From assembly GCA_038061925.1 (NCBI GenBank), contig JBBTYD010000002.1, positions 352 through 64,351 on the forward strand: 64,000 nt of DNA, given 5' to 3'. Below are positions 3,471-53,210 of this stretch, piece after piece. A program made the translations under genes and the position numbers. The notes under the pieces are model-generated. The model saw nothing but the letters and a program-made list of their open reading frames with translations, was not told where the DNA came from and made no database searches. This DNA is from Patescibacteria group bacterium. GTDB taxonomy: Bacteria; Patescibacteriota; Minisyncoccia; Phycocordibacterales; UBA9973. How positions within the stretch are numbered: position 1 is the first letter of the stretch; each line of letters opens with the position of its first letter.

Positions 3471-3586
3471 AAAATGAATCACCAAGAAAACCCCAGTAAG
3501 CCCTAAGGCTATCATCAGTATAAAAATAATCAACGTCTTAAAAAAATGTTTTGTTATCATAATTTTATTATATCATACCATTAATA

Positions 3587-3616
3587 GAAAAACGGAAGCC
3601 TTGCTTCCGTTTTTCT
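3587..3616. terminator. Terminator hairpin, repeat family A (third copy)
   Basis: GAAAAACGGAAGCCTTGCTTCCGTTTTTCT is identical over 30 nt to the copy at 2296..2325. It lies just downstream of the stop of CDS 3621..3842. Confidence 0.6.
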
Positions 3617-3620
3617 ATTT

Positions 3621-4480: not shown

Positions 4481-5587
4481 CTACTGAGCGTTCATCAGAG
4501 CTTTTGTTTTCTTTCCAACGAGACCGTCAGCCACTAGACCGTTATCCTTCTGCCATTGTTTTATGACTTTAATGGTCTTTGGACCCAGTTTACCGTCAAC
4601 TACCAAGCCAAGATTCAATTTATCATTCAAGAATCTTTGTAGTTCTTTAACCGGCTCGCCCTTGCTCCCATTTTTGAGAGTGGTGGCGCCGAAGTTATAC
4701 ACTCCGGTAGTGGTAGAAGAAGGCGCTGAAGTATTTCCTACACACGACGCTCCATTAGCCGTACTAAAGCCACTAATTCTATTTCCACATCCTGGAATTT
4801 GAGGACCCGTATTGTTAACACATAATACTCCAGTTGAAGTATTGTACTTATTTCCACCAGAACATCCTTGCGTAGGAGGAAGTGGAACCACTACCTCCGT
4901 TCCGCTTCCTGCAACAGTGATGGTGTCTGAGACAGCCATTGACATATTGCCGGCAGCATCCCGGAACTTAGCATAAACTGTCTTTACTCCATCTCCTGAG
5001 ACAAGCGTCCAAGTTTTGCTCGTCGCATAAGTCTCCCATAATGCTCCAGCAAAACCAGCGTCATTTGAGATAAGCATTTGAGTAGCGTCTGTGGCAGAGA
5101 GAGTCAAAGTTGAAGTAAGTACAGCACTTGTCGTTGCTCCAGCATTGATACTGACTGAAGTATTAGTAGGTGCTGTTGTATCTGCAGGTGGAGTAGCCGC
5201 ATATCCTCCGCCTCCGCTGCCGCCTCCTCCGCTAGTTATCGCTCCACAAGCAGTCGTAGAGGGAGTGACCGTCACATCTAAGCTAGCGGTAATAATGAGC
5301 TTGCTTTCTCCATTTGTACAAGTAGCGGTCAAGCTTCCGTTGTTAGTAAGAGTGTGCCTATTTGGAGAAATGAGAGTAAAGGTAGCTGATGCCGGAGTAA
5401 CTACCTGTAAGGTCGTAGTATCCAGCACGATTGATGTCGCTTCTGAACCGCTTAAAATGGTGTAATTATTGCCGTTGATTGTGATTACCACATCAGCGCT
5501 ATAAGTCAAAGCAAAAGCAGAATTGGCTACACCAACAAAGAGAGATAAGACAGCTATCAGTAAACCTAATTTTAATTTTTTAATCAT
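4481..5587 (-). CDS. Secreted protein with a C-terminal peptidoglycan-binding (PG_binding_1-like) domain
   Basis: Start taken at the internal Met (MIKKLKLGLLIAVLSLFVGVANSAFA signal peptide). C-terminal LKNGSKGEPVKELQRFLN...VDGKLGPKTIKVIKQWQKDNGLVADGLVGKKT matches the PG-binding repeat. Contains a GGGGSGGGG linker. Confidence 0.65.
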   Translation of the reverse strand: MIKKLKLGLLIAVLSLFVGVANSAFALTYSADVVITINGNNYTILSGSEATSIVLDTTTLQVVTPASATFTLISPNRHTLTNNGSLTATCTNGESKLIITASLDVTVTPSTTACGAITSGGGGSGGGGYAATPPADTTAPTNTSVSINAGATTSAVLTSTLTLSATDATQMLISNDAGFAGALWETYATSKTWTLVSGDGVKTVYAKFRDAAGNMSMAVSDTITVAGSGTEVVVPLPPTQGCSGGNKYNTSTGVLCVNNTGPQIPGCGNRISGFSTANGASCVGNTSAPSSTTTGVYNFGATTLKNGSKGEPVKELQRFLNDKLNLGLVVDGKLGPKTIKVIKQWQKDNGLVADGLVGKKTKALMNAQ

Positions 5588-5716: not shown

Positions 5717-7324
5717 TTATGCACAAGTAATGGCACCTGTTGTATCGGCGCCACTTGCGCCAATGAACCACTTTGTACCATTTGAACGAAGTTCAATAAA
5801 GTCACCGACATCTTCTGCAGTAGCAACAATAGTTAAGACAGTCGCGGCGGCACAAGAAACATCTAGTGCGGTAACCTTAAGAGTACCCTCAATAACTGCT
5901 GTAGCTGCTGTTATAGTTGCGTTAGTTGTGACATCAGCTGCTACGACGAATCTATACACAACACCGTTAGAAGTAGCTACGGCAGGAAGAGTAATAACTG
6001 GAGCAGTAGCTAGATAGAAAGTTCTACCACTCATGGCAGCCGTTAATGCCTGCGTACCAGTAACTGCCAAGGTATCTTCAAAGTAACGCACACCACTAAC
6101 TATATTACCAATAGTGATTACCTCTGTACCTGAACCGGTAGGAGTGCCTGTACCGATGTTGATAACTTTTCCACCTGCAAGAGTCGTAGCTCCTGTACCG
6201 ATGTTAATAGTGGCAACACCTGTAGTGTTTGCACCGTCGCCAATGTTAACAGTTTTTGAACCTGCGCCTGAAGTAAGTCCTGAACCAATGTTTACAGTAT
6301 TCGCTACTGCAGTGTTTGCCGCCGCAATATTTACAACATTAGCGCCTGCTGTGCCACCAGCAATCGTAACAGTAGATAGACCAGCGCCACCACCAATAAC
6401 AACTGTTTGTGTACCAGAAGATGAACCAAGAGTAATATCGCCTGTTCCATCTGATTTACCAATTACAATAGTATTGCCAACTACTCCCGGATCTAGAGCA
6501 ATAGCTCCACGAATAGTAGTAGCGCCAGTTTGCGCAGCGCTTCCGATTGTTATCGCAGAAGTGGCTGCACCGGATGTTCCAAGAGTTACGGTAGAAACAC
6601 CTGAAGTAGAGGCAAGCGCAACTGTTTGTGCGCCAGTACCACGACCGAATGTCATTGTGCCGACATGAAGGCCTGTACCACCAAAGGTGATTGTGCCTGT
6701 GGTCATTAGAGTACCAGCGGTGATTGAACCGGCTAGTTGCGCATTACCGATAGTTACAACATTAGCGGCTGTGCCACCAGCAATTTGCACTGTTGAAACA
6801 CCAGCGCCACCACCAAGTATTAGAGTTTGATCTCCAGATGAAGATCCAACTGTGATATTGCCTGTTCCTGCCGTACCACCGATAATGGTTACACCCGAAG
6901 TGTTGCCAGTCCCAATGTTAATAGTTTTAACCGCAGCGCCTTGAGCGACATTGACTGTCTGGTCAGCTGAAGATGTACCAAGGCTGACAGCGCCAGTTCC
7001 AGCGGCTGCGCCGAGCACAAGAGTGCCGGCAGTACCCGGGGTCAAAGAAAGACCAGCCGCTACGCCAACACCAGTATCAGTACCACCATAAATAATAGTA
7101 CTTCCACCAACCTGACTAGCATTACCAATTGTAATATCACCAGTTGTAGCCGTCGTCGCAAAACCCATTGCCGAACCGACTGCGCCGGTGATTGTCAGCG
7201 CGCCGGTTTCAGTGAGCACATTTGCACCGATAGTAAAAGACGCGAGTGTTTGCACTGCTCCAACTCCCGCGATAAGAGATAAAGCAACAAATCCTAAACC
7301 TAAACCTTTAAATATATTTTTCAT
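5717..7324 (-). CDS. Gly/Thr/Ala-rich repetitive secreted surface protein (beta-helix or adhesin-like)
   Basis: 535 aa with a signal peptide and many degenerate repeats of the type ITLGSSSG(D/T)QT(L/V)(I/V)(L/I)GGGAG(V/L)STV(Q/T)IAGGTA(A/G)ANVV(T/N)I. Confidence 0.65.
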   Translation of the reverse strand: MKNIFKGLGLGFVALSLIAGVGAVQTLASFTIGANVLTETGALTITGAVGSAMGFATTATTGDITIGNASQVGGSTIIYGGTDTGVGVAAGLSLTPGTAGTLVLGAAAGTGAVSLGTSSADQTVNVAQGAAVKTINIGTGNTSGVTIIGGTAGTGNITVGSSSGDQTLILGGGAGVSTVQIAGGTAANVVTIGNAQLAGSITAGTLMTTGTITFGGTGLHVGTMTFGRGTGAQTVALASTSGVSTVTLGTSGAATSAITIGSAAQTGATTIRGAIALDPGVVGNTIVIGKSDGTGDITLGSSSGTQTVVIGGGAGLSTVTIAGGTAGANVVNIAAANTAVANTVNIGSGLTSGAGSKTVNIGDGANTTGVATINIGTGATTLAGGKVINIGTGTPTGSGTEVITIGNIVSGVRYFEDTLAVTGTQALTAAMSGRTFYLATAPVITLPAVATSNGVVYRFVVAADVTTNATITAATAVIEGTLKVTALDVSCAAATVLTIVATAEDVGDFIELRSNGTKWFIGASGADTTGAITCA

Positions 7325-7550
7325 ATTCTAATAATTTTATCCCACTTTGCCAAAGCTTCGCGGGACGAGCTAATAATAAATAAACCTGATAATGATAATA
7401 ATTTTCCTCAATTGCCTAATAGTGCCCTTAAGGAAATGCACTGTTAGATAATTCAAGATGACAAAAAAGTATTCGACACTTTAATGCGTTATTAATTATA
7501 CAACAAAGAAAAATATTAGAACACAATAGAAAGTGGGGATAACTCCCAAA

Positions 7551-7585
7551 CTAGGGGCTAGGAGCTAGGAGCTAGGAGCTAGAAA
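7551..7585. repeat. Heptanucleotide microsatellite (GGAGCTA)x~4
   Basis: GGGGCTAGGAGCTAGGAGCTAGGAGCTAG, about 230 nt upstream of the start of the surface-protein gene 5717..7324. Confidence 0.8.
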
Positions 7586-7829
7586 AAAATGATTATTTGT
7601 CTTTTATTTTACAATAACCGTTCTTACATATACTATTTTTAATTCGTTTGACATCTTTTGTACCTATAAAATCCTCCAAACGTTTCTTTAATTTATCACA
7701 CACAAAACAGCTTTTTTGAAAATGTTCGATGGAAAGCTCATAAAGATGTCCTAAATCCTGGAGATAATAAAACCATGAGATTCAAAGAACTTTACTATTT
7801 CAGACCCAGAAATGCTAGTTTTTATCTTA

Positions 7830-8060
7830 TTAGGCATATGACGGGGTATGGAACTCGAAACTTGCAACCACTCCTGGATTTTTAACAAATTCATTTTCAA
7901 CTTCATCCACCATTTCTTCTAAATACAAAGAAACAGCTTCTCCAATGTTCTTTTCAAGTTCCTCAAAAGTTTTGCCGTCAGTTACAATAGGAGCATTCAA
8001 TCCAGAAGCAACATACATACCATCTTCATTTGTAATAGAAAACTGTATAACCTTTTTCAT
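7830..8060 (-). CDS. hicB: HicB-like (UPF0150) type II antitoxin family protein
   Basis: 76 aa. ...EDGMYVASGLNAPIVTDGKTFEELEKNIGEAVSLYLEEM matches the HicB N-terminal RNase-H-like-fold pattern (DGxYxAxxPxLPGxxxxGxTxEEAxxNxxEAIxLxLE). Confidence 0.6.
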   Translation of the reverse strand: MKKVIQFSITNEDGMYVASGLNAPIVTDGKTFEELEKNIGEAVSLYLEEMVDEVENEFVKNPGVVASFEFHTPSYA

Positions 8061-8135
8061 ATTTTAAGTATAACATATTACTAGTCCCTAGCAACTAGCT
8101 AGAAAGAGCCTAAGACTCTATCCAGAAGCACCTAA

Positions 8136-8492
8136 TTATTTCCCTTGCGCTGTCAGAGTTTCAGCAATTTTGCTGGTTGCTAGAAGCGGACCATAAAAGA
8201 CAACGTTGTCCTTTATGAGATGCATAGTCTCCGGCGCCCAAAGAGCGTCTTTTATTGGATTAAGAGTAAAATTACTCTTAGTTTCATCAGTTTCATCTTT
8301 GACAACTTGCAAAATATAGCCGTTTGAAAGCCTCATATCAGGAAAAGTTGTTAATTTACCAACATATACTTCTCCGGTTGTCATATATACGACAGAATAA
8401 ACATTGTTTTTATTTGCTTTATTCACCCAAAAACCAACTCCCACCACAACCAAAACCACTAGAGCTACTATTACGATATTTTTTTTTGACAT
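8136..8492 (-). CDS. Hypothetical membrane-anchored protein
   Basis: 118 aa with an N-terminal TM helix (IVIVALVVLVVVGVGFWV). Confidence 0.45.
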   Translation of the reverse strand: MSKKNIVIVALVVLVVVGVGFWVNKANKNNVYSVVYMTTGEVYVGKLTTFPDMRLSNGYILQVVKDETDETKSNFTLNPIKDALWAPETMHLIKDNVVFYGPLLATSKIAETLTAQGK

Positions 8493-8533
8493 ACATTTTT
8501 TGATTATTATTTATAATAATAATATGACTTATT

Positions 8534-8827
8534 TTATTTTAAGTTTTTCTTTTCTAAAAAATCTACTCTGGATTTTAATTTATCATGGTCTTCATATTTA
8601 ACCCTATTTAATGACATATCATCGAGCCTTCTATTTACACCACCAATATGATAAATCAAATTATTTTCAATCCTAGCCATATTTCTACCTACTTCTTCAA
8701 ATCCTTTGGCTGTAGATATAGCCAATTTTTCAATATCACCCTTATTGTCCTCAAAACCTTTAGCAACCATCATCGCTAATTTATCAATTGTCATCTTTTT
8801 AGTTTTTACTTCTTTTTTCTTAATCAT
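8534..8827 (-). CDS. Hypothetical protein with an internal AKGFE(D/E) duplication
   Basis: 97 aa. Repeated motif ...MVAKGFEDNKGDIEKLAI / STAKGFEEVGRNMARIEN... Confidence 0.35.
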   Translation of the reverse strand: MIKKKEVKTKKMTIDKLAMMVAKGFEDNKGDIEKLAISTAKGFEEVGRNMARIENNLIYHIGGVNRRLDDMSLNRVKYEDHDKLKSRVDFLEKKNLK

Positions 8828-8902
8828 ATTATTTTATCTTTTTTAGACTTTATAACATTAAAAACTTGATTACTTTATAACTAATCTTCCCAGTATATCA
8901 AA

Positions 8903-9547
8903 CTATATTTTCGTCCGCAAGCTTTCTATCTCCGCTTGGAATATAGCTGTCCGGGCGGGATTGATAGTGATTGCCTTCTCTAAATACGCTATGGCTTCAG
9001 CGTATTCCTTATTTTCAACCAAATATGAAGCATAACCGGTAATTAAATCAATATTGTCTTTAGTATTTTTCAAGCCTTCAAGATAAATCTTTGAAACAAT
9101 GTCAAAAGGGGCTTTTACATAATAATTTTCAAAATATGCATATTCCACCCAGTTGCTGGCTATCCGGCTGTCGGCAATAAGGGCTTTTTTTATCGCATTT
9201 TCGGCATTTTGGTAATCTTTCAGCCCCAGATAAACGGAATATAAAGAGCGGTAAATACGATCATTTTGCTCTAACAAAACGGCTTTTTTAAGGTAAGGTA
9301 GGGCTTGTGCATACTGCCCCTTTAGGTAAAATTCATGGCCTTTATTGATTAATTCTTTGTAAGTAGGAGCGGGGGCTGGTTTCACTTCTTTCACGACGCT
9401 TGTGGTCGAGGTCCCGATTTCGGTCGGGATTTCTGCTGGTCTCTCTTGAACTGGGGCTTGCTCTTTCCTGGCGAACAAAGAAAGACCTCCAACAACAAGC
9501 AATATCATTGTAATGTATGCGAAATTTTTATATGAATTTGATGCCAT
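8903..9547 (-). CDS. Membrane-anchored TPR-repeat protein
   Basis: TPR-like helical repeats (AQALPYLKKAVLLEQND..., YQNAENAIKKALIADS..., YAEAIAYLEKAITINP). An N-terminal TM segment follows the Met at 9547. Confidence 0.55.
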   Translation of the reverse strand: MASNSYKNFAYITMILLVVGGLSLFARKEQAPVQERPAEIPTEIGTSTTSVVKEVKPAPAPTYKELINKGHEFYLKGQYAQALPYLKKAVLLEQNDRIYRSLYSVYLGLKDYQNAENAIKKALIADSRIASNWVEYAYFENYYVKAPFDIVSKIYLEGLKNTKDNIDLITGYASYLVENKEYAEAIAYLEKAITINPARTAIFQAEIESLRTKI

Positions 9548-9667
9548 AACAAAGAATATAGCATAAAAAGGCAAAACAAAAAACCACTCCGACCTAGGTC
9601 GGAGTGGTTTTTTGTTAAGCTAATAGATATTCGACCTTCTAAAAGCTACCTCATTAACTAATTAAAG

Positions 9668-12600
9668 TTATGAAGGATTTACGTGTGAGAGACCGAAGAT
9701 GTCACCCTTGAAAACGTAGTCTGCTTCATTGTAATCAGCAGTACCAGCGTTAATACTGAATTCAAGGTTAGCGGCAGCGTCGTCGCTGAGCCATGGCTGT
9801 AGAGTGTTGCCATCGGTAGTAAGACCACCGGTGTTAACATAAATCGTTACCGTTTCACTACCGCCAGATGGAATAGTAAGTGTACTATCCGCAAAGAGAA
9901 CTGAAGCAGAGGTGCTACCAGTTGTTGCAGCCATGTTAACTGTGTCAAGCAGAGTTCCTTCAGCATCACGAAGCGTTACAGCGTCAGTTGCTGTTGTCAA
10001 TGTGCCTGAAATCTCAAAGTTAATCTTGAGCGTGTCATCACTGTCAAAAGTAACGTCTTTGTTACCCATATTTGTGATAAGAAGTCGGCCCGCGACATAG
10101 TTAGCATTTGCTCCAAGAACAGTTGATACTCCTGCGTTATTGAATTCAACTTTTGGATATGTCTCATAAGCGGTGTGTGTAGCGGCGTCAACACTTGTCT
10201 GTGTTGAGTCTACAGCAGAACCGGAAGCAAGACCCGTGGTATCAATATCACCAGCAGCGTCAACGGTAGTAATAAGAGTATCACCATTTACGAATCCTGT
10301 GCCATCAATATCATTCAAGATAACTTTAACAGTCACAAGCTTGTAATCACTAGCTGGAATGACGAGAGAGCCCGTAGATGGGAATACTTCTGCAAGACCT
10401 GCGCTAGGAACTACTGTTCCGAGAAGCGTAGAGCCATTGTAGAACTTGTAAGAAGCTACAACGTCATCGCCACTTGTACCATCATCCGTAATCTTAATAC
10501 TGTCAACATTCAAGTTTTCAGTATTATTGGCAGCCAGTCTGAATACAGCAACTGTTTGTTCAGCTGAAGTATCGAGAAGCAAAGCCGCGGTAGGAGATGA
10601 AGAGTCAACAGAAACCGTCAGCGTACCGCCGGCAGAAACAGTCATTACTTGACCTGCGCCTGAAGGAGTGAGAGTAACTGATGTTCCGGTAGTCTTACCA
10701 TTTGCGGTAACATCACCAGAGTCAGTATCTATACTGATAGCGAATGTATCACTTGTAGTAGCGCTAGCAGAAAGGTCGGCAATTATAGCGATATTTACCG
10801 AACCATTCTTGGTAACACTAACAATCGGATTAAGATTGAAGGTCAGAAGAGCGTCTCCATCAGCGGTGCCGGTGAATTGCTTTGTATCTCCAATTTTCGT
10901 TTCATACACATCGCCTCGAGTGCTCAAAGCTGACGTCAAGTCTGCCCAGATTTCAACATTATCCACGTCTTGCGCGCCGGAAGCAGTAGTTGTATCTAAT
11001 TCGTCCACAGTGTTCTCCACAACGATAGTGGAGACATTTACGTCTTCACCAGAGTTGGAAGCGGACAATGTAGCCGTAGCCCAGATGAAGTCTTGCTGAC
11101 CCTTGACGACACTGCGAGCCGCAGGAGTCGTGTTGGTGACAGCAGTAAGAGCAGCAGCTTGAACTACCATAGTATTACCGGAAACAGCTGAAGTAGGACT
11201 TGGAGTGACAGAGTCATTGGAAGTCATACCTTTCGCCACGATACCAGTTGAAGGAGCGTCAAGATCAATCTTGATAGTGTCGCCAAGGGAAACAGCAGAC
11301 GCAAGATTTGCGGTTACCTTAACTTTCGTCACACCAACAGGAAGGATAACAACATCCGTAAATGTCACATCTTCCGTGCCTGTGATTAAGTCTTTAGGAC
11401 CGGCAAGCAAAGCGCCTGTCGTAGCGTCAACCAACTTAACATTGGTGACTTCATCATAAGTCATCGTAGCTAAAGTGGTATCAACATTGATGGAAGTAAG
11501 CTTCATTGGTTCACCCAATACTTGGAAGTCAAATGTTGCCAAATGCACATCCGAACCGGAACTAATATTGCCGGCTGCCGGAGTGGAAGACGACTTAGTG
11601 ACGGTGAGCGAACCAGCTTGAATTGTCTGGTTGCTTCCGCCTTGACCGTTAGTCAAAGAGTTCGTAGGTGTGATGTAGAAACCGTAAGTATTACCTACAA
11701 CTTGAACACGGACATCAGAACCGTCAGTAAGGTCTGCGTTTACAGTCAAGCTTGAGCCGGAAACGATGTCAACACGAACTTCAAACCTTCGAGTCTCGCC
11801 TTTTTCAAGGACGATATTCAAATTATTGAAAGTTGCCAAACCGTTTGCGTCCCAAGAAGCGGCTGTGCCGAGAGTGACCGCTTTGGAAACATCAAAAAGC
11901 TCAATGTTTGCGATATCTGAAGAAGAAGCCGTACCTTGTCTTTCAACGGCAATCTGTTTGACTGTCACCGCTTCAACTGAACCGGATGTCAATTTGAATT
12001 TATTAAGAACTACGTCTGTAGCACCGCCGTCCGGCTGTGAGTCTGTAACTGTTCCATCTTCATCAGCAGTCAATACGCCGATATCAAGAAGCACGGTACC
12101 CATAAGGTTACCCTTAACTGGGAATGAACCGCCGACTGTGACATTTGCTATTACATCGGAAGCTACATCAATACCAAGAGCCACACTTTTACCACCAACT
12201 GTAGCGTTAACTATACCTGCGCGAATGTAAAAAGATTTTACAGTGTTAGCTGGGATAGTTAGAGCTGGAGAGAAGGTAATCTGTGCTTTATTGTTAGTGT
12301 TTAGACTTCCAGATGAAGAAACCTGCACCATGTCCTCATCAAGAATCTTGATGTTTTCAACATCAGAATTGATAGAGAGACCATAGCGAGTCACATACAA
12401 GCTGGTAATGGAAACAGCTGTAGGGCCAGCACTGATTGTGAACTTTGTAAAGTTCGCATTGCCAGCGTCTGGAACTGTGCCGGAAGCTGGGTTGTCAGCC
12501 GCAAGCGCAACTGCAGCAACTCCAGAAGACACAACTACACCCGTGGAACATGATGCGCCAGTCGTAGAACTAAATCCGGAAGCGGAAGTACAACCGGCTG

Positions 12601-13057
12601 GAAGTGTCGTGCTGACTACAGCCGTACATGCTTGACCCGTCGTAGGACTAAATCCGGAAGCGGAAGCACAACCGGCTGGAAATGTCGTGCTGACTACTAA
12701 AGCCGTACATGCTATACCAGTCGTAGAACTAAATCCGGAAGCGGAAGCACAACCGGCTGGAAATGTCGTGCTGACCGCGCCACCTGTAAGGGCAGTTCGG
12801 GACTTAGCACCGAATATTCCATCGGCTACTAAACCTACGCTAGACTGCCAAGCGACAACAGCAGCTTTGGTTATGTTGCCAAAGATTCCATCAACTGGAG
12901 AGACACCAAGAGCTGTTTGAAGTTCCGTTACTTGAGTGCCCTTTGAACCTTTTCTCAAAGTGGAAGTGATAGTTGCATCAGCTGAACTTGTTGTAACAAC
13001 AAAAGCTAGAAGCATTACCATCCCTAAAAGAAATTTTAATTTTAATAATTTACTCAT
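9668..13057 (-). CDS. Very large secreted cell-surface protein: signal peptide, PG-binding domain, Cys-containing tandem repeats, many Ig/Big-like beta domains
   Basis: 1129 aa. N-terminal signal, then LRKGSKGTQVTELQTALGV...VADGIFGAKSRTAL (PG_binding_1-like). Three tandem copies of VSTTFPAGCASASGFS(S/P)TTG(I/Q)ACTA. The rest is Thr/Ser/Val-rich beta-strand domains. Confidence 0.75.
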   Translation of the reverse strand: MSKLLKLKFLLGMVMLLAFVVTTSSADATITSTLRKGSKGTQVTELQTALGVSPVDGIFGNITKAAVVAWQSSVGLVADGIFGAKSRTALTGGAVSTTFPAGCASASGFSSTTGIACTALVVSTTFPAGCASASGFSPTTGQACTAVVSTTLPAGCTSASGFSSTTGASCSTGVVVSSGVAAVALAADNPASGTVPDAGNANFTKFTISAGPTAVSITSLYVTRYGLSINSDVENIKILDEDMVQVSSSGSLNTNNKAQITFSPALTIPANTVKSFYIRAGIVNATVGGKSVALGIDVASDVIANVTVGGSFPVKGNLMGTVLLDIGVLTADEDGTVTDSQPDGGATDVVLNKFKLTSGSVEAVTVKQIAVERQGTASSSDIANIELFDVSKAVTLGTAASWDANGLATFNNLNIVLEKGETRRFEVRVDIVSGSSLTVNADLTDGSDVRVQVVGNTYGFYITPTNSLTNGQGGSNQTIQAGSLTVTKSSSTPAAGNISSGSDVHLATFDFQVLGEPMKLTSINVDTTLATMTYDEVTNVKLVDATTGALLAGPKDLITGTEDVTFTDVVILPVGVTKVKVTANLASAVSLGDTIKIDLDAPSTGIVAKGMTSNDSVTPSPTSAVSGNTMVVQAAALTAVTNTTPAARSVVKGQQDFIWATATLSASNSGEDVNVSTIVVENTVDELDTTTASGAQDVDNVEIWADLTSALSTRGDVYETKIGDTKQFTGTADGDALLTFNLNPIVSVTKNGSVNIAIIADLSASATTSDTFAISIDTDSGDVTANGKTTGTSVTLTPSGAGQVMTVSAGGTLTVSVDSSSPTAALLLDTSAEQTVAVFRLAANNTENLNVDSIKITDDGTSGDDVVASYKFYNGSTLLGTVVPSAGLAEVFPSTGSLVIPASDYKLVTVKVILNDIDGTGFVNGDTLITTVDAAGDIDTTGLASGSAVDSTQTSVDAATHTAYETYPKVEFNNAGVSTVLGANANYVAGRLLITNMGNKDVTFDSDDTLKINFEISGTLTTATDAVTLRDAEGTLLDTVNMAATTGSTSASVLFADSTLTIPSGGSETVTIYVNTGGLTTDGNTLQPWLSDDAAANLEFSINAGTADYNEADYVFKGDIFGLSHVNPS
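12530..12795. repeat. Three tandem ~78-nt direct repeats inside CDS 9668..13057
   Basis: Near-identical units ...GTCGTAGAACTAAATCCGGAAGCGGAAGCACAACCGGCTGGAAATGTCGTGCTGAC... repeated three times; they encode the 26-aa Cys-containing repeat. Confidence 0.85.
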
Positions 13058-13582: not shown

Positions 13583-13623
13583 GATACCAACTTGTCAACT
13601 TGGCAAGTTGACAAGTTGGTATC
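13583..13623. repeat. Perfect 19-bp inverted repeat with a 3-nt loop, spanning the stop codon of CDS 13595..14470
   Basis: GATACCAACTTGTCAACTTggcAAGTTGACAAGTTGGTATC. Confidence 0.9.
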
Positions 13624-14470
13624 GACTCCAGCGTTTCTCTCCCGTCTTTTTAAGGACACCATCTTTCGTCATAGACATTAATTCTCTTTGGAGTGTTTTC
13701 TCACTACAGACAAGTGACCGATATGCTCCAGTATTTGTTTTTTCTTTAATGTCCTTTATAGTGGAATTTCCTCCATTATTTTTAATAATATTAATTATAT
13801 CTTCTCGTCTTTGCTTCTTTAATATATCAAATCCCAAACGAAAATTTTCAGCTTCATACGGAGCAGGATTATTTTTATTTGTGTTCTTTATGTCCGATAA
13901 GGCTTTCAACAAGGTACTTCCCTTTTGGACACCAAGCCTAGTGTGTCCTTTAAAATTTGATTCTTTTTTTTCTGAATGTCCTTTAGGAAAAGGCGCAATT
14001 AATTTATTCACTCCGGCTTTTGGCCATCCATCGGGAGAGGAAGAATCCCGAAAAAATTCTGTAAGCCACATAGACTTTTTATTTATATATTCCTGCATAG
14101 ATCCTTGTAGCTCAAGAAATTCTTTTTTTAAAATAGCGCAATTCATTTCGGAAATAAAATTCATAGCTGAAGCAATATCTAAAAAGGACACGGTTTCGGC
14201 TATTTTTGTACTAGCTTTTGCTGACTCTATGTGCCCAGCATAATTCTGCTGAATCAAATGCATGTCTGATATGATTTCAGTACCTAGACTTCTTAATTTG
14301 TGTCTGATGGGTTCATCTTTGTCTATTATGTCCGTTACCATATAGAGCGCTGTAATAAGTCTAGGAGTCTTAGTGTAGGAAATAGAAAAAGAAATGTCCA
14401 TTAAAGAAATGTCTGTATCGGTCCCCATGTCTTTAAAATTTTTATTCATAGCTTTATTCTCGGCTAACAT
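13595..14470 (-). CDS. Hypothetical protein with a C-terminal winged-helix domain
   Basis: 291 aa. The C-terminus ...NSTIKDIKEKTNTGAYRSLVCSEKTLQRELMSMTKDGVLKKTGEKRWSRYQL resembles the C-terminal wHTH found in Fic/RecG-C-type regulators. No Fic motif was found. Confidence 0.45.
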   Translation of the reverse strand: MLAENKAMNKNFKDMGTDTDISLMDISFSISYTKTPRLITALYMVTDIIDKDEPIRHKLRSLGTEIISDMHLIQQNYAGHIESAKASTKIAETVSFLDIASAMNFISEMNCAILKKEFLELQGSMQEYINKKSMWLTEFFRDSSSPDGWPKAGVNKLIAPFPKGHSEKKESNFKGHTRLGVQKGSTLLKALSDIKNTNKNNPAPYEAENFRLGFDILKKQRREDIINIIKNNGGNSTIKDIKEKTNTGAYRSLVCSEKTLQRELMSMTKDGVLKKTGEKRWSRYQLVNLPS

Positions 14471-14569
14471 TTGTCCATTATATATAGGACAAGTAAAAAA
14501 GCAACTACAAAAATTGGATTATTTTGTTAAATACGATATGGATATTTTTTTGTTTTATAAAAAGAAAAT

Positions 14570-14628
14570 AAAATGCTTTACTCGGGTCCTCGGAAGGGGG
14601 TCAGCCAGACCAGCTCGCAAAGCATTTT
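14570..14628. repeat. Palindromic element with the conserved 28-nt core GGTCCTCGGAAGGGGGTCAGCCAGACCA (copy 1)
   Basis: AAAATGCTTTactcg[core]gctcgcAAAGCATTTT, upstream of ftsK. Confidence 0.85.
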
Positions 14629-14676
14629 ATTTTCTTTTTATATTTTTTATATACTAAAATATGTTAAAATGCTTGC

Positions 14677-16863
14677 ATGGTAAAAAATGGAAACAAGGGA
14701 GATGGTCAGGAATATTCCAAGGAAAATAAATGGGGATTAAAAACTCAAACTAAACACGGAATAATGGCAATTATTTTTTTTGTTTTGGCGTTATTTTTTT
14801 TAATGTCTTATTTCGGTGTGGCTGGAAAAGTTGGAATATTTATCCATAATAATTTTATAAATTTGCTTGGTTTAGGTTATATTCTTCTCCCGGTATTATT
14901 TATTATGCTCGGATATTCATTCTTAAAATCAGAAACTCCCAATATAGGGTGGACCCGAATAATCAGCGGAATAATGTTTCTTCTTTCCAGTTTGGGAATA
15001 ATAGACATCACTTTAAAACATTCTGGAGGATTATTGGGAAAAATTTTATCAACCCCTTTTGTATCTTTTTTTGATGTGTATGCGAGCATCATTTTTCTCG
15101 GCGCAATTTTAATAATTTCAATTCTAGCGATATTTGACGCAAAGTTAAATCTCCTTCCATTTTTGAAAAAAATTTGGAATTTCAGCCTAAAGAAAAAAGA
15201 AGCGCAAAAGGAACCCGTAGAAATTAAAGAGGATATTGGAGAACCTATCCCAGAAGAGGAAAAAGAAAGTACTGGGGAAAAAATAAAAAAAGTATTAGGA
15301 GTTGGAAAAAAGAAAGAAGAGGAGGAAGAGGAAGAGATATCAATTAAAACCAGACGGGGCGGATTAGTTTCCACGTACACGCCTCCTCCACTCTCGCTCC
15401 TCGAGGAAGATAAAGGCAAACCCAACACCGGTGACATAAAAGCGAACGCAAATATAATAAAGCGCACCCTCCTAAATTTCGGCATTGAAGTGGAAATGGA
15501 TGAAATAACCATCGGACCGACTGTCACGCGTTACGCGCTCAAGCCGGCCGAAGGGGTAAAACTTTCCCGCATTGTAGGTCTGCAAAACGACCTCGCGCTT
15601 TCGCTGGCGGCGCACCCGATCAGAATAGAGGCGCCGATTCCGGGAAAATCTTTGGTCGGCATCGAAATTCCAAATAAATCAAAATCAATCGTCGGTCTGG
15701 CCACCCTTCTTTCTGACGAAAAATTCAAAAATTCTTCAAAACCTCTGACGACCGCCCTCGGTCGCAATATTTCCGGCAAAGCGGTTTTTGGAAATTTAGC
15801 CAAAATGCCACACATTCTCGTCGCCGGCACAACCGGTTCGGGAAAATCAGTCACGATCCACTCGATGATCACTTCTCTTTTATATAGAAACGGCCCAGAT
15901 GATTTGAAACTGATATTGATAGATCCGAAACGTGTGGAATTGACTCTTTATAATAATATTCCGCATTTGCTTACGCCTGTTATCACCGAGCCCAAAAAGA
16001 TAATTTTGGCTCTTAAATGGGCAGCTAAAGAAATGGACCGCCGTTATGATATTCTGGAAGCGGAATCCGTGCGAGATATAGAGTCTTATCACGCTAATAT
16101 ATATAATTCGAAGAAAAAATCCCTCGAGACTACCCTGGATAGCGGAAGCGCGCTAGATGCGGACCGCTTGCCATACATTGTCATCGTGATAGACGAGTTG
16201 GCGGATATTATGAGCTCCTATCCGAGAGAACTTGAATCCGCGATCGTGCGCCTAGCGCAAATGTCCAGAGCCGTCGGCATACATTTGATACTTTCCACTC
16301 AGCGTCCCGAAGTAAATATCATTACCGGTTTAATCAAGGCCAACATCCCGGCCCGGGTCGCCTTAAAAGTATCTTCCCAGGTAGATTCCCGCACTATCCT
16401 CGACGCTGGCGGAGCGGAAAAACTTTTGGGCGCGGGCGATATGCTCTATTCTTCGGGAGAAGCTCAACCAGAACGCTTGCAAAGCGCTTTTATTTCAGAA
16501 TCAGAAGTCAAAAAAGTCGTCAAGTATTTGACAAATGCATATCGAGATGAAATTCCGGGAGAAATAACATTAACTTCAGAATCTATTGGAGCCGATAAAA
16601 GCATTTTTGAAAGCGCGTTGGAAAATGAAAAAAATATGGAAAATGACGATGAAATGTACGAAGAAGCTCGGATGTGCGTAATCGAAGCCGGCAAAGCGTC
16701 AACTTCTTATCTGCAAAGAAAATTAAAATTAGGATACGCTAGAGCAGCCCGGCTGATGGATAAACTAGAAGAACGCGGAGTAATAAGTCCCGGAGATGGC
16801 GCAAAACCAAGAGAGGTTTTGGAGAAAATCACGCGCGACGAGACTGGAACAAATATGATATGA
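14677..16863 (+). CDS. ftsK: DNA translocase FtsK/SpoIIIE
   Basis: 728 aa. N-terminal TM helices, acidic linker, Walker A GTTGSGKSV, conserved ATPase core, and a C-terminal gamma winged-helix (ASTSYLQRKLKLGYARAARLMDKLEERGVIS). Confidence 0.95.
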   Translation: MVKNGNKGDGQEYSKENKWGLKTQTKHGIMAIIFFVLALFFLMSYFGVAGKVGIFIHNNFINLLGLGYILLPVLFIMLGYSFLKSETPNIGWTRIISGIMFLLSSLGIIDITLKHSGGLLGKILSTPFVSFFDVYASIIFLGAILIISILAIFDAKLNLLPFLKKIWNFSLKKKEAQKEPVEIKEDIGEPIPEEEKESTGEKIKKVLGVGKKKEEEEEEEISIKTRRGGLVSTYTPPPLSLLEEDKGKPNTGDIKANANIIKRTLLNFGIEVEMDEITIGPTVTRYALKPAEGVKLSRIVGLQNDLALSLAAHPIRIEAPIPGKSLVGIEIPNKSKSIVGLATLLSDEKFKNSSKPLTTALGRNISGKAVFGNLAKMPHILVAGTTGSGKSVTIHSMITSLLYRNGPDDLKLILIDPKRVELTLYNNIPHLLTPVITEPKKIILALKWAAKEMDRRYDILEAESVRDIESYHANIYNSKKKSLETTLDSGSALDADRLPYIVIVIDELADIMSSYPRELESAIVRLAQMSRAVGIHLILSTQRPEVNIITGLIKANIPARVALKVSSQVDSRTILDAGGAEKLLGAGDMLYSSGEAQPERLQSAFISESEVKKVVKYLTNAYRDEIPGEITLTSESIGADKSIFESALENEKNMENDDEMYEEARMCVIEAGKASTSYLQRKLKLGYARAARLMDKLEERGVISPGDGAKPREVLEKITRDETGTNMI

Positions 16864-16944
16864 GAGCAAATTTTACTTTTTTAAAGGTCCTCGGAAGGGG
16901 GTCAGCCAGACCATTTAAAAAAGTAAAATTTGCTCTCATATCAT
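16855..16944. repeat. Palindromic element, copy 2: perfect 31-bp arms around the 28-nt core
   Basis: ATGATATGAGAGCAAATTTTACTTTTTTAAA[GGTCCTCGGAAGGGGGTCAGCCAGACCA]TTTAAAAAAGTAAAATTTGCTCTCATATCAT. The left arm includes the ftsK stop codon. Confidence 0.9.
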
Positions 16945-16949
16945 AAAAT

Positions 16950-17294
16950 ATGGACAACAATGCGAAAAAAATATTACAAATAACCACTCTGTCTGTTTTT
17001 TTTCTGCTTATTATTACTTATGCCTTTTTTCGCTCTCAGGATCTGATTTTTGGAGTGCAAATAAAAAATGTAAATATAGTCGATGGAACAAAAGTCGCAA
17101 GCAGTGTTATGGAAGTGACCGGAAATGCAAAAAATGCGACAAATTTAACCTTAAACGGTCGGGAAATTTCAATAGATGAAAATGGTAATTTCAACGAGAC
17201 AATTGCGCTTCTGGCAGGATATAATATAATAAATATAATAGCCAAAGATAAGTTTGGATATGTTGATAAAAAAAATTATAAGCTAATGTATTAG
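16950..17294 (+). CDS. Hypothetical small membrane-anchored protein
   Basis: 114 aa with an N-terminal TM helix (ITTLSVFFLLIITYAFF). It sits between two copies of the palindromic element. Confidence 0.45.
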   Translation: MDNNAKKILQITTLSVFFLLIITYAFFRSQDLIFGVQIKNVNIVDGTKVASSVMEVTGNAKNATNLTLNGREISIDENGNFNETIALLAGYNIINIIAKDKFGYVDKKNYKLMY

Positions 17295-17295
17295 C

Positions 17296-17368
17296 TAAAT
17301 AATTTTTCTTTTTTAAAGGTCCTCGGAAGGGGGTCAGCCAGACCATTTAAAAAAGTAAAATTATCAAG
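17296..17368. repeat. Palindromic element, copy 3, with the 28-nt core, flanked by a 9-bp direct repeat AAGCTAATG
   Basis: ...AAGCTAATGtattagctaaataatttttcttttttaaa[core]tttaaaaaagtaaaattatcAAGCTAATG... The arms are about 90% complementary and share about 54 nt with copy 2. Confidence 0.85.
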
Positions 17369-17376
17369 CTAATGAT

Positions 17377-31437: not shown

Positions 31438-34400
31438 TTATTTTTCAATTTTTACCTTAAAAACCAATTCATCTATTTTAATTTCTTTGCCATCATTTTT
31501 TTTAAATTCTAGCTCAGATGCCAGAACAGTTTTTTTTAGATCAGCTTCAAATTTTTTTATCAATTTTTTACCCAAGTCATTTGTTTCAAAAGTGAGTGAA
31601 ACAATATCGTTTGGCGTCAATCCAATTTCTTTCCTCATATCTTGTAAAGCCCGCGCCAATTCGCGATAGTTCCCTTCTTGTTTTAATTCCGGAGTTATGT
31701 TTATGTCAAGAACAACTTCGGCTTTGATATTTTTATTCTGTTTTACTTCTTTTACGTTCAATTCATCTTTTAAAAGCTTAATATATTCTTCTCCTAAGTC
31801 AAAATTTTTAACTTCCAATTTATTTAGGGGCTGACGAACTTGAATTTTTTCTTTTTGACGAGCTTCAAGCCCAAAAGAAGCAATAGCGCGAACTATTCTC
31901 ATTTCATCTATGATTTTTCTATTTATTTTCCCCGCTTCTGGCCATTTTCCCAAATGCACGCTTTCTGCATCTTTCTCGTTTTTCAATTTCAACCAGATAT
32001 CTTCCGCCGTGAATGGTGCAAAAGGAGCCATAATTTTAGCCACAGTTTTTAAAATAAAATATAAAGTTTGTTTGGCCTCGCCCGGAGATCTACGGCCGAG
32101 AGCTTTTTTGCCCTCTTCCTTGATTCGCTCACGAGAACGACGCAAGTACCAGATCGAAAGATCTTCTATAAAATTTTCAATCGGGCGAGAAGCTTCATTT
32201 ATATCGTATGTTTCCATGCCATCTGTAACTTCACTTATTAGTTGATTCAGGCGCGCCAAAATCCACTGATCGAGCATATTAGAACTGAACTTTGAATTAC
32301 CAGTCGCAATTTCTAGCGAACGATCACGGTACAATTCATAAAAAGAAACCACATTACCAAGTCGTCCTATTATTTTGCTCGAAATTTCTTGGACCGATTT
32401 TTCTGAAAAATTCACATCTTCTCCTTTCATTAACGGACTAGTCATTAAATAAATACGCAATGCATCAACCCCGTATTTGTCTATAAATATCCACGGATCC
32501 GGATAGTTCTTTTTTGATTTTGATATTTTTTGACCATCCGAAGCAAGGAGGGTGCCAGTCGTGACAACATTGTCAAATGGCGCGTGCTTAAAAAGAACAG
32601 TGGAAAGAACATGAGTATAGTAAAACCACGTTCTGGTCTGAGCAATATATTCAGCCACGAAACCAGCCGGAAAATTATTTTTCTGCCAATCCGGATTCTC
32701 AAATGGATAATGATCTTGAGCAAAAGGCATAGAGCCAGATTCGAACCAAGAATCAAGAACTTCCGGCACTCTCTTCATTTCGGATTGGCAATGGCAGATA
32801 AGTTTCAGGTTGTCGATATAGGGTCGATGATAATCAAGTTCATAATCGGAATTATGTGGAATAGGAATAAAATTAACGACTCTATATTCCGCATTTGCAA
32901 AAAGATGAAATTGGCCAGACACTCCTTTCTCAACTTCTTCTGAATGTCTGAATAATCCGCCAGTCATAGAAATAGACTCATTGACATTATATCCATTCAA
33001 TATAGAAAAAAGCATCCAAAGCGGAGCCCCGTGTGAAATTATTAGTATATTTTTGTTCTGGTATTTTTCTTCAAATTCATAAAAGATATTTCCGACTCTC
33101 TTTTTCACATCAAGCAATGATTCTCCGCCATGAATCGGATTTAAAAACCTTTCTCTGGCGTTTTTAAACATACTCTTATACTCATCCCAAGGTTTGCCTT
33201 CAAAATCTCCCGCATCTAATTCTCCCAATCTTTTATCAAAAATCACTTGCTCATCTTTTAACCCCAAGCTTTCTTTTAAAACATGGAACGTCTCGCGAGT
33301 ACGCATAAAAGGCGAAACAAAAACAAGATCAATATTTTTATTTTTTAATTCTTTGGCAGTTTTTTGCACTTGTTCCTCTCCATTTTTCGTCAAATGGTCG
33401 ATATTTTCCACCAGAGAAGAGACGACGCCATGCAGATTGCTTTTGACATTACTTTCTGCTTCCCCATGGCGCATCACAAAATATTTATTATTGGACTTTT
33501 TTGTTTTGGCTTTCAGATCGGAAAGAGAACCGATAAAAATTTTCTCCGCGCATTTTAGACACTTCCAAACAGGCAAGGGTGAAGCCCAGTAACGGTTTCT
33601 GGAGACATTCCAATCAGGCGCATTTTCAACTATATTTTTAAATCTTCCTTCTTTTAAATGTGGAGGAACCCAGCGCATTGCATTCGCTTTTTGAATTATT
33701 TGTTTCTTGACTTTTTGAATATTTATAAACCAAGAAGACAACGCATAATAAATAATTGGCGTGTCACAACGCATACAATGTGGATATGAATGGATTATTT
33801 TTTCTTTCTCAAAATAGGCTCCTGTTTTTTGTAAATATTTAATCACTTCAATGTCCGCCCGCAGATGAGCGTCTTTGTCTTCCGGCGTATCTTTCGGTTT
33901 TACTTTCAAGCCGGCAAAATCCGTCACTTCCTTTTTAAATCTACCTGTCTCATCCACGTGAATAATCCAAGGGAGGTCATTCTGCTTGGCGAGATTCATA
34001 TCGTCTTCTCCGAAAGCGGACGCTTCGTGCGCCAGACCCGTGCCTTTTTCGGTAGTCACAAAGTCCGCATGCCAAACTTTCCAAATATTTTTTTTATTCG
34101 GCAGATCAATATTTTGATAATATGGGAAAACCGGTTTGTATTTTTTGCCCAATAAATCTTTTCCTTTAACTTCACCCAATATAGAATATTCCTTATCTTT
34201 CAACACGCTTTGCAATGTTTCTTGGGCCAGAATCAACATATTGTTCCCTATTTTTATTTTTACATAAGAAATATCTTTATTGACCGCAATCGCGGTATTC
34301 CCGGGCAAAGTCCATGGAGTCGTAGTCCACGTAAGAAAGTATGTACCGGGTTCATCTTCCAACTCAAATTTTACATAAACAGAAATATCCGTAATATCTT

Positions 34401-35004
34401 TATAACTGTTATCCATCGCTATTTCAGAGTTCGCTATGGGTGTTTCACACCTCGCGCAATAAGCCAAAACCTTCACCCCCTCATAAATAAGACCTTTTTT
34501 ATTTAATTCACTAAATGCCCACCAAACGGATTCAATAAAAGTATTGTCCATCGTTTTGTAACCACCGCGAAAATCCACCCATCTTCCGATGCGCTCTACC
34601 CCGCTTTCCCATTTTTTGTCATATTGTAAAACTTTACTGCGCGCGTGTTCCACAAAAAGATCTATGCCAAACTTTTCTATCTCCTGATGTCCAGCAATAT
34701 TCAAATCTTTTTCAACAATATTCTCAATCGGCAAACCATGACAATCCCAACCCCATTTTCTAAGAACACGATAGCCTCTCATGGTTTGATAGCGCGCGAT
34801 CGCATCTTTGGCTGTACTACCTAAAATATGTCCATAATGCATGAGCCCGGTGGCAAAAGGCGGGCCATCATAAAAAACATAGTTGCCTTTCGGAGCCTTT
34901 TTAATCAAAGACTTTTCAAAAATTTTATTTTCTTTCCAAAACTTCAAAACAGCTTCTTCGCGAAGAGCCACCTCTGACTTTTTTGTTGTACTTTTATTTT
35001 CCAT
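31438..35004 (-). CDS. ileS: Isoleucyl-tRNA synthetase with an embedded histidine-phosphatase (PGAM-like) domain
   Basis: Class I core (PPFATGLMHYGHIL, CP1 editing domain, KISKSKKN = KMSKS). A continuous in-frame ~180-aa segment KYFVMRHGEAESN...SPFMRTRETF...ILIISHGAPLWML (RHG, R and SHG catalytic motifs of histidine phosphatases) sits between the zinc-knuckle cysteine pairs CLKC and CHC. The start is taken at Met-10 (MENKSTTKK), 5 nt after the argS stop. Confidence 0.9.
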   Translation of the reverse strand: MENKSTTKKSEVALREEAVLKFWKENKIFEKSLIKKAPKGNYVFYDGPPFATGLMHYGHILGSTAKDAIARYQTMRGYRVLRKWGWDCHGLPIENIVEKDLNIAGHQEIEKFGIDLFVEHARSKVLQYDKKWESGVERIGRWVDFRGGYKTMDNTFIESVWWAFSELNKKGLIYEGVKVLAYCARCETPIANSEIAMDNSYKDITDISVYVKFELEDEPGTYFLTWTTTPWTLPGNTAIAVNKDISYVKIKIGNNMLILAQETLQSVLKDKEYSILGEVKGKDLLGKKYKPVFPYYQNIDLPNKKNIWKVWHADFVTTEKGTGLAHEASAFGEDDMNLAKQNDLPWIIHVDETGRFKKEVTDFAGLKVKPKDTPEDKDAHLRADIEVIKYLQKTGAYFEKEKIIHSYPHCMRCDTPIIYYALSSWFINIQKVKKQIIQKANAMRWVPPHLKEGRFKNIVENAPDWNVSRNRYWASPLPVWKCLKCAEKIFIGSLSDLKAKTKKSNNKYFVMRHGEAESNVKSNLHGVVSSLVENIDHLTKNGEEQVQKTAKELKNKNIDLVFVSPFMRTRETFHVLKESLGLKDEQVIFDKRLGELDAGDFEGKPWDEYKSMFKNARERFLNPIHGGESLLDVKKRVGNIFYEFEEKYQNKNILIISHGAPLWMLFSILNGYNVNESISMTGGLFRHSEEVEKGVSGQFHLFANAEYRVVNFIPIPHNSDYELDYHRPYIDNLKLICHCQSEMKRVPEVLDSWFESGSMPFAQDHYPFENPDWQKNNFPAGFVAEYIAQTRTWFYYTHVLSTVLFKHAPFDNVVTTGTLLASDGQKISKSKKNYPDPWIFIDKYGVDALRIYLMTSPLMKGEDVNFSEKSVQEISSKIIGRLGNVVSFYELYRDRSLEIATGNSKFSSNMLDQWILARLNQLISEVTDGMETYDINEASRPIENFIEDLSIWYLRRSRERIKEEGKKALGRRSPGEAKQTLYFILKTVAKIMAPFAPFTAEDIWLKLKNEKDAESVHLGKWPEAGKINRKIIDEMRIVRAIASFGLEARQKEKIQVRQPLNKLEVKNFDLGEEYIKLLKDELNVKEVKQNKNIKAEVVLDINITPELKQEGNYRELARALQDMRKEIGLTPNDIVSLTFETNDLGKKLIKKFEADLKKTVLASELEFKKNDGKEIKIDELVFKVKIEK
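32962..33489 (-). other. Histidine phosphatase (phosphoglycerate-mutase-like) domain inserted within ileS
   Basis: Residues ~515-690 of the IleRS ORF: RHGEAESN ... RTRET ... SHGAPL. Confidence 0.8.
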
Positions 35005-35008
35005 TCTA

Positions 35009-53149: not shown

Positions 53150-53164
53150 ACGCTAGCATTATAG

Positions 53165-53201
53165 CAAAAAATCCCTCCAATAAACATTGGCGGGGATTTT
53201 T
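53165..53201. terminator. Terminator hairpin, with TATAAT immediately upstream of pilB on the minus strand
   Basis: AAAAAATCCCTCCAATaaacatTGGCGGGGATTTTTT. The minus strand continues GCTATAATGCTAGCGT-ATG (pilB). Confidence 0.5.
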
Positions 53202-53210
53202 TGCTAATTG

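Follow-up and report, generated by a model that had tools for sequence, protein, structure and literature searches.

The Rickettsia palindromic elements (RPEs) RPE-1 to RPE-10 (Ogata et al. 2000, 2002, summarised in PMC10969869) are repeated hairpins that are frequently inserted in frame in housekeeping genes. Here we describe a family of palindromic elements that is represented four times in a 64-kb stretch of contig JBBTYD010000002.1 from a Patescibacteria group bacterium (the window, meaning the whole 64,000 nucleotides analysed) and that recurs in other members of the Candidate Phyla Radiation (CPR). Like the RPEs, these are stable repeated hairpins found both between genes and in frame in unrelated housekeeping genes of a host with a reduced genome; the open reading frame (ORF) stays open, the insert occupies a region compatible with the protein fold, and neither group has yielded a transposase, terminal inverted repeats or target-site duplications. 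The two differ in that RPEs are about 100-150 bp long, conserved over their full length and read as one peptide in one frame, whereas the present family shares a 28-nt centre and about 12 nt of each arm and is read in three frames. Furthermore, its outer arms are site-specific and self-complementary, its host belongs to the CPR/Patescibacteria and not to the Rickettsiales, and no published sequence match was found. The element works like an RPE, yet without full-length conservation, a single peptide, sequence homology or a shared phylum, and is neither an RPE nor a canonical miniature inverted-repeat transposable element (MITE) nor a member of the REP/RAYT system (repetitive extragenic palindromes and their associated tyrosine transposases).

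The core of the element, the exact 28-mer GGTCCTCGGAAGGGGGTCAGCCAGACCA, occurs on the + strand of the window at 14585-14612, 16886-16913 and 17318-17345, where a preliminary description of this DNA had placed it, and has 0 matches in 100 dinucleotide shuffles. That description held the 28-mer to occur nowhere else in the window; a search permitting up to 3 mismatches adds a fourth, at 43981-44008 of the - strand, which differs from the core by G13A alone and lies within recJ in its reading frame. All four copies are the centres of long inverted repeats, with arms of 17-32 bp and RNA fold z-scores of -3.2 to -12.8, and both the difference in arm sequence from copy to copy and the mini-hairpin GGTC-AGCCA-GACC inside the core are as first reported. 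Copy 1 (hairpin 14556-14642, + strand; left arm 14556-14579, ACTCG 14580-14584, core 14585-14612, GCTCGC 14613-14618, right arm 14619-14642; minimum free energy -36.4 kcal/mol, z -7.6) has perfect arms of 24 bp, not the 10 bp originally assigned to it, and these are separated from the core by the short asymmetric junction ACTCG / GCTCGC. It sits amid divergent genes, one at 13595-14470 (- strand) and ftsK at 14677-16863 (+ strand), the latter recognised by the Pfam FtsK domains on the identical gene in L036 (labels L002-L047 denote loci from our scans of public genomes and metagenomes and from relatives, and P-numbers denote RecJ homologues).

Copy 2 (hairpin 16854-16945, + strand; left arm 16854-16885, core 16886-16913, right arm 16914-16945; z -12.8) has arms that are 100% complementary over 32 bp, and its outer left arm is the 3' end of ftsK, taking in the final codons and the stop TGA at 16861-16863; the perfect pairing and the absorbed stop had been recognised, with the arms put at 31 bp. 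Copy 3 (hairpin 17290-17373, + strand; left arm 17290-17317, core 17318-17345, right arm 17346-17373; z -5.6) has 28-nt arms that are 89% complementary, in agreement with the earlier estimate of about 90%, and its left arm takes in the stop TAG (17292-17294) of a 114-aa ORF. The right arm of copy 2 stops 4 nt before the ATG of that ORF (16950), and the right arm of copy 3 stops 9 nt before the ATG of recA (17383, the start being taken from the gene call in L036), so that the ribosome-binding sites of the 114-aa ORF and of recA, if any, lie within or against the hairpin. Copy 4 (hairpin 43960-44028, - strand; left arm 44028-44012, junction, core 44008-43981, junction, right arm 43976-43960; z -3.2) has 17-nt arms that are 94% complementary. 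Its G13A variant creates TCGGAAGAG (43995-44003), a 9-nt identity with the Illumina adapter GATCGGAAGAGC that we judge to be a coincidence, as L031, which stems from a different project, shares G13A and the canonical core shows no such identity.

What the copies have in common is a GC-rich centre, GGTCCTCGG..CAGCCAGACC, canonically of 28 nt, placed between A/T-rich arms to give an element of about 60-120 nt. The first 8-12 nt of each arm are typical of the family, ..AAAATTTTC(tcg) on the left and (gctc)GAAAATT.. on the right, and the outer parts are specific to the site yet still pair with one another. When arms are anchored on the core, positions 5-8 are near-invariant (TTTT / AAAA), conservation is partial to about position 12 and gives way to background beyond, while complementarity persists to about 26 nt, well past the limit of about 12 nt at which sequence conservation ends.

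The core is rare but not confined to the window. A 24-nt pattern drawn from it returned 4 loci among 185,579 species-representative genomes, 3 of them in one Saccharibacteria metagenome-assembled genome (MAG) and 1 in a Nomurabacteria MAG (2 of 185,579 species genomes), and a metagenome scan added 31 further loci, for a total of 35 beyond the window, in Nomurabacteria/Paceibacterota and Saccharibacteria, and 36 distinct copies. Viral contigs and phage and plasmid collections scanned for the core gave 0 matches. The closest RecJ homologues of the window are likewise assigned to Nomurabacteria/Paceibacterota. In all 36 distinct copies the centre lies between self-complementary arms, of 14-35 base pairs, so that the core with flanking inverted repeats recurs in other genomes; the invariance of the core claimed in the preliminary description is partly circular, as our scans demanded an exact match to the core (to the 24-nt pattern in the species genomes). 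Core subtypes are specific to genomes, GACAC in contig Ga0247841_10000263 and GACCT in the Saccharibacteria MAG, and within one genome copies can have the same core subtype and differing outer arms, as seen in L007, L013 and L032, all of them GACAC.

Although the elements were first described as intergenic, most of the copies found elsewhere lie in coding sequence, and about 21 of the 36 distinct copies are in frame within long ORFs, at about 14 sites in at least 11 protein families. Besides RecJ, the hosts recognised by Pfam are PheRS, a class-V aminotransferase (IscS-like, at two sites), DNA polymerase I, UvrD, ribosomal protein L22, a ComM-type Mg-chelatase, LeuRS, the NAD-dependent DNA ligase LigA (two sites), a GatA-type amidase and IleRS. 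Depending on the site the core is read as GPRKGVSQT, (G/R)SSEGGQPD or VLGRGSARP, so that all three frames are in use, and even at one and the same site the frame can differ (recJ in the window and in L007; IscS in L002 and L025), 1-2-nt indels at the junctions restoring the host frame. As the core is read in differing frames, its conservation is at the level of the nucleotide and not of the peptide. All three sense frames of the core are free of stops and encode Gly, Ser, Pro and charged residues, while one antisense frame contains TGA, and for this reason the intragenic copies are, judging from the reading frames, most probably translated as a floppy loop. A census of the insert peptide gave one candidate and no match in a word-indexed search and 0 hits in an exhaustive phmmer search with the 30-aa insert, a query too short to gauge abundance.

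Orientation is strongly biased. The core lies in the sense direction of its host gene at 13 of 14 independent intragenic sites and is co-directional with its neighbours at 9 of 11 intergenic sites, a bias exceeding the ratio of about 3:2 that stop codons alone predict. In the window the copies follow local gene direction, the ftsK-recA-efp block forming a + strand island in a mostly - strand region, which hints at transcription rather than replication as the relevant polarity; the GC skew of the window merely mirrors gene direction and is weakly informative on this point.

The recJ copy allows the insert to be followed within one protein. The host gene (42741-44489, - strand) encodes a RecJ of 582 aa with DHH, DHHA1 and RecJ_OB Pfam domains, to which homologue P0001 is 100% identical. 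Copy 4, with its G13A core, is placed between the DHH motif and LPRAYAILNPK, is translated within the recJ frame as SSAENFLGSSEEGQPDQLENSLPT (in wider reading ..ITDHHLPKTSSAENFLGSSEEGQPDQLENSLPTSAFILPRAYAILNPK..), and adds 27 aa relative to insert-free homologues, with the insert peptide stretch ..ENFLGSSEEGQPDQLENSL... Among the 120 closest homologues, at 72-77% identity, 72 are without an insert and read ITDHH(I/L)PQE(I/V)LPRAYAILNPK, about 30 have inserts of 8-13 aa, and about 16 have inserts of 27-35 aa exactly at the position of copy 4, several of these long inserts keeping arm peptides (..ENFL.. / ..LENSL..). Decayed copies occupy the same site: in the recJ genes of L042, L043 and L044 the middle of the core is replaced or shortened while the end sequences GGTCCTCGG and CAGACCA remain, in L046 the right arm alone is left as a deletion footprint, and in L045 a small hairpin remains. 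Modelled with AlphaFold on a 50-sequence alignment, the RecJ of the window has at residues 153-178 a predicted local distance difference test score (pLDDT) below 50 and no secondary structure, with confident strands of the DHH domain on either side, and the predicted insert fits a tolerated surface loop. A neighbour-joining tree of RecJ was set aside as a means of counting gains and losses, the homologues being nearly equidistant (72-77%) and their order unreliable. RecJ also has a second insertion hot spot, straight after AILNPK, where P0031, P0095, P0102, P0112 and P0109 carry the 13-aa V(G/S)GVSKDGTPHDS.

Syntenic relatives, at 71-82% nucleotide identity, were compared site by site, and the same sites are found filled, empty or holding an inverted core. 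The ftsK-orf spacer is filled in the window and, with different arms, in L010, while in L016 it is empty (TAAATG) and in L017 it holds two small unrelated GC hairpins by which the C-terminus of FtsK is rewritten. The orf-recA spacer is filled in the window, L009, L012 and L017, lacks the element in L010 and has the core inverted in L016. At the site of copy 1, upstream of ftsK, the element is present in no relative, and L017 and L016 carry other hairpins there. Genes behave in the same manner: the IleRS site is filled in L032 and empty in the window; at the second IscS site L026 has the element and L002 does not; at LigA site 1 L019 alone has it; LigA site 2 has a sense copy in L035, an antisense copy in L005 and a diverged or degenerate insert in L019; and the linker of DNA polymerase I has canonical copies in L003, L027 and L031 and a rearranged one in L013. 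Empty alleles, which the preliminary description had proposed to look for in relatives, thus exist for the ftsK-orf spacer (L016), IscS (L002) and recJ (72 of the 120 homologues). The spacers of the relatives also hold other hairpins: those of L017 (about 2490-2600 and 4805-4850) include nested, GC-rich ones besides the two small ones at the end of FtsK; L010 (1380-1480) has a tract of aggcactag/gcctaaagcctaat repeats; and L016, read on the reverse strand, has a different centre, CGCCTGCAAGCACTGGCTTCGTTTTGCTTGCCAG, between the AT-rich arms AGAAGAAAAAGTTTT / AAAATTTTTACTTCTT upstream of ftsK. Taken together they point to a larger assortment of hairpin elements that differ in their centres.

The arms change in concert. 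By RNAalifold, 15 of 17 arm pairs carry double compensatory changes; copies at the same site in different genomes show 49 double compensated against 44 one-sided arm changes, and a comparison of copy 2 with the arms of L010 shows 9 and 1, respectively, far more concerted change than independent mutation would give. In two cases the source of an arm can be traced. The ftsK C-termini NMI*, NVI* and NII* of the window, L010 and L016 are homologous, and at the site of copy 2 the right arm repeats, in reverse complement, the ftsK end of the respective lineage with its stop (TGA/TCA for the window, TAA/TTA for L010). In L026 it is the right arm that holds native coding sequence, for FDFVFAVNG (the empty L002 has LKFNFVVNG here), of which the left arm is an inverted copy. 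Template switching has been documented both to create and to maintain hairpin stems (PMC8794818). One arm copied from native flank, the concerted changes and the presence of one core subtype with differing outer arms point to arms that are templated, by fold-back or intrastrand template switching or by arm-to-arm conversion, a process that fits the arms better than slow selection of compensatory mutations.

A 9-bp direct repeat, AAGCTAATG, at 17280-17288 and 17366-17374 had been read as a target-site duplication around copy 3; this reading is not supported, as the right copy is the outer right arm of copy 3 itself and the left copy is made of the conserved K-L-M C-terminal codons of the 114-aa ORF, codons that L010 has as well without the element. 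A likeness to the inner arm, suggestive of an A4T4 target motif, is seen at some empty sites, namely recJ in L047 (CAGGAAATTTTG), LigA in L005 (AAAATTTTCT) and IscS in L002. The motif is found neither at recJ in L041 nor at LigA in L035, and a preference for a target or for microhomology remains a lead only.

Among other described systems, MITEs (Correia, ERIC, Nezha, RUP) resemble the present family in being small, non-coding, repeated, bounded by inverted repeats, polymorphic for presence and absence and occasionally in frame; they differ in having conserved terminal inverted repeats that match a parent insertion sequence (IS) and target-site duplications of fixed length, whereas here the arms vary, flanking duplications of a fixed length were not found and a parent IS is not known. 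REPs and bacterial interspersed mosaic elements (BIMEs), mobilised by RAYT, an IS200/IS605-like HUH enzyme, are also single short dispersed hairpins, and the orientation bias would fit a mechanism based on single-stranded DNA; REPs, however, are extragenic, have conserved stems and a GTAG foot and are often clustered by a RAYT gene, none of which is seen here. The GC-rich palindromic inserts and the byp elements of yeast mitochondrial genes are mobile GC-rich hairpins in an AT-rich genome and lie within protein-coding genes, as here. The byp elements break the frame and are bypassed by the ribosome, whereas every intragenic copy of the present family is open and in frame, and read-through translation is the simplest reading. 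An integron attC site was considered and rejected, as its R and L boxes are conserved at the outer ends around a variable centre, the opposite of the arrangement seen here, where there is also no cassette context.

Hairpins made by template switching, or quasi-palindrome correction (PMC8794818), share with the present family an arm that is the reverse complement of native flank and many compensatory differences arising at once, but template switching by itself does not account for one and the same 28-nt centre recurring across different lineages at 36 unrelated sites. No known RNA family accounts for the hairpins either: Rfam (15) at gathering thresholds found only 23S rRNA in the window, a tRNA/tmRNA scan gave nothing relevant, and at E up to 10 the best Rfam score for copy 1 was 28 bits against thresholds of 60 bits, from miRNA and snoRNA models matching the AT stem only. 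A resemblance to helix 8 of the signal recognition particle (SRP) RNA (GGUCC..GGAAGG..CAGCCA) was dropped, as no SRP model scored at E 10. In the literature searched we found no paper tying palindromic or MITE elements to the CPR and none containing the core sequence.

We propose a model in which the four copies of the window belong to a family of non-autonomous, essentially selfish palindromic insertion elements of the CPR/Patescibacteria whose arms are re-templated, and we consider this the probable explanation of our observations. The element would land in spacers and genes alike, and an intragenic copy would last only if the frame is kept in a tolerant loop. Its arms would then be re-templated, either by conversion of one arm from the other or by inverted copying of the adjacent flank when the strand folds back or switches template on itself at the hairpin, which would keep them complementary without selection for an RNA structure. 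Copies would finally decay, by replacement of the core middle, by deletion of the centre leaving an arm footprint, or by a flip of the core between the inverted arms. A miniature mobile palindromic element was among the possibilities raised in the preliminary description, and presence, absence and inversion at syntenic sites, the genome-specific subtypes and the approximately 14 in-frame gene sites support it; mobility would be the cause of this distribution.

Several observations weigh against the selfish-element model. The canonical core is identical across lineages whose host proteins are only about 55% identical, and an nhmmer profile run over the window and the 35 loci, about 330 kb of related DNA in all, recovered the exact-core set and the remnant in L013 but nothing of intermediate divergence, so that identity across lineages and the lack of intermediates could equally mean purifying selection on the core. 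In the population of Hainich groundwater well H43, from which the window comes, the elements are identical in 5 assemblies, with neither population polymorphism nor an actual transposition event seen. A canonical target-site duplication was not found across copies, nor is the arrangement X-X'-element-X general; the longest direct repeat at the palindrome boundaries averages 5.1 nt, a weak excess over the 4.1-4.4 nt of same-locus controls, and has no fixed length or position. A Pfam search of the window proteins found no transposase, HUH endonuclease (Y1), IS or reverse transcriptase. The rule that one arm is always native flank, which holds for copy 2 and L026, fails at recJ, where neither outer arm has a counterpart in the empty site. 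The sense bias, too, is not expected of a purely neutral DNA parasite and hints at a role at the RNA level or one linked to transcription.

A more specific version, which we put forward only tentatively, dispenses with a transposase altogether. The GC-rich centre would nucleate a hairpin and thereby provoke template switching in replication or repair, be copied into new A4T4-like sites through the palindromic GAAAATTTTC microhomology of both arms, and have its arms resynthesised by fold-back of the flank. Such spread would explain why complementary arms are specific to each site, why they track the stop codons of each lineage and why there is no fixed target-site duplication, and in a variant of it the sense bias may reflect an RNA or transcription-coupled intermediate. 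If true, the element would amount to a 'hairpin meme' able to propagate itself and, in doing so, to write new loops into essential CPR proteins.

The bias towards a sense or co-directional core (13 of 14 sites within genes, 9 of 11 between genes), which in the window follows gene direction, is also what speaks for a functional RNA or single-stranded DNA hairpin, in which a conserved CPR factor (an RNase, RNA-binding protein or helicase) would recognise the 28-nt apex on any long stem and control mRNA processing, stability or downstream translational coupling, with the pairing of the arms under selection. Such a hairpin is further favoured by the identity of the canonical core in Saccharibacteria and Nomurabacteria, by the massive stem covariation and strong hairpin z-scores, and by copies 2 and 3 filling their spacers to 4 and 9 nt before the next start codon. 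We nevertheless find it unlikely: 72 of 120 close RecJ homologues do without the element and others show a substituted core middle or a lost centre, syntenic relatives have either no insert or unrelated hairpins in the corresponding spacers, the core is inverted in place in L016 and L005, and the exact core is present in 2 of 185,579 species genomes. Furthermore, there is no obvious rationale for a regulatory hairpin inside about 11 unrelated essential enzymes, no Rfam family matches, and covariation can be obtained by templating without selection (PMC8794818). The protein-binding hairpin with a recognised core that was suggested earlier therefore survives in part, in that the strand bias favours a strand-specific process, whereas replacement of the core middle at the orthologous recJ site goes against recognition of the core.

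The remaining readings have much less in their favour than the selfish-element model. A DNA-level signal short enough for genes to tolerate it, such as a DNA-uptake sequence for competence or a polar motif organising the chromosome, would suit a strand-biased motif in a window that encodes ComEC-type competence and type IV pilus genes. Uptake sequences of other bacteria do occur inside genes and as inverted pairs. The density, however, is low (4 copies in 64 kb; 3-5 copies per contig of 145-367 kb), a species-specific uptake signal would not be common to Saccharibacteria and Nomurabacteria, long site-specific inverted arms are not needed for one, and orientation in the window tracks local gene direction and not a single direction of replication, so that we think such a signal very improbable. 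No more weight can be given to intrinsic terminators or attenuators of the ftsK-orf-recA block, as which copies 2 and 3, being very stable hairpins directly 3' of stop codons, might pass: copy 1 lies between divergent genes upstream of ftsK, copy 4 and about 20 others lie inside open ORFs, the stems are AT-rich with no consistent T-run, the terminator-like hairpins of the window are of another type, and in L016 ftsK is followed by the next ORF without any spacer. The structured terminator or attenuator of the preliminary description is not supported, on the same evidence. Finally, local template-switch mutations or assembly artefacts with no shared element behind them, to which the site-specific and in some cases flank-copied outer arms could be ascribed, are effectively refuted by an identical 24-28-nt centre at 36 distinct sites in independent JGI, ENA and NCBI assemblies of different lineages, where zero chance matches are expected and 5 assemblies of the same population are identical.

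In-frame palindromic selfish DNA in essential genes has hitherto been near-unique to Rickettsia, and an unrelated family in the Patescibacteria suggests that it is a recurrent outcome in small, AT-rich, reduced genomes. The inserts have practical consequences as well, as they inflate or fragment the marker-protein alignments used for CPR phylogeny and produce spurious 'lineage-specific loops', and, since the arms absorb the stop codons of ftsK and of the 114-aa ORF, gene callers can be misled at stops and starts. The behaviour of the arms also offers a natural test bed for the origin of hairpins by template switching as against stepwise compensatory mutation.

The window contains further repeats and genes apart from these elements. 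A second, unrelated hairpin repeat, AAAAACGGAAGC..GCTTCCGTTTTT, is present in 2-3 copies at 2231-2336 and 3583-3619, and other terminator-like hairpins or perfect palindromes stand at gene ends (9575-9616, 13583-13623, 53162-53206 and 61269-61317), the perfect palindromes looking like ordinary bidirectional terminators. ComEC-type functions are split over three ORFs, DUF4131 at 41763-42224, Competence at 40749-41711 and a metallo-beta-lactamase at 39228-40109, and between two of these a superoxide dismutase gene lies on the opposite strand (40163-40765). A protein of 1129 aa (9668-13057, - strand) combines an N-terminal peptidoglycan-binding domain with repeated STTFPAGCASASGFS motifs and a long region rich in Thr, Ser and Val, Pfam recognising nothing else in it, and the 5' end of a 23S rRNA gene (1-502, - strand) runs off the start of the window. 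Among the loci compared, L018 encodes a LeuRS with an embedded NUDIX domain (9855-12713, - strand) and L032 an IleRS with an embedded His_Phos_1 (histidine-phosphatase) domain (7162-10821, + strand); the IleRS of the window (31441-35055), at about 1200 aa, is of similar length.

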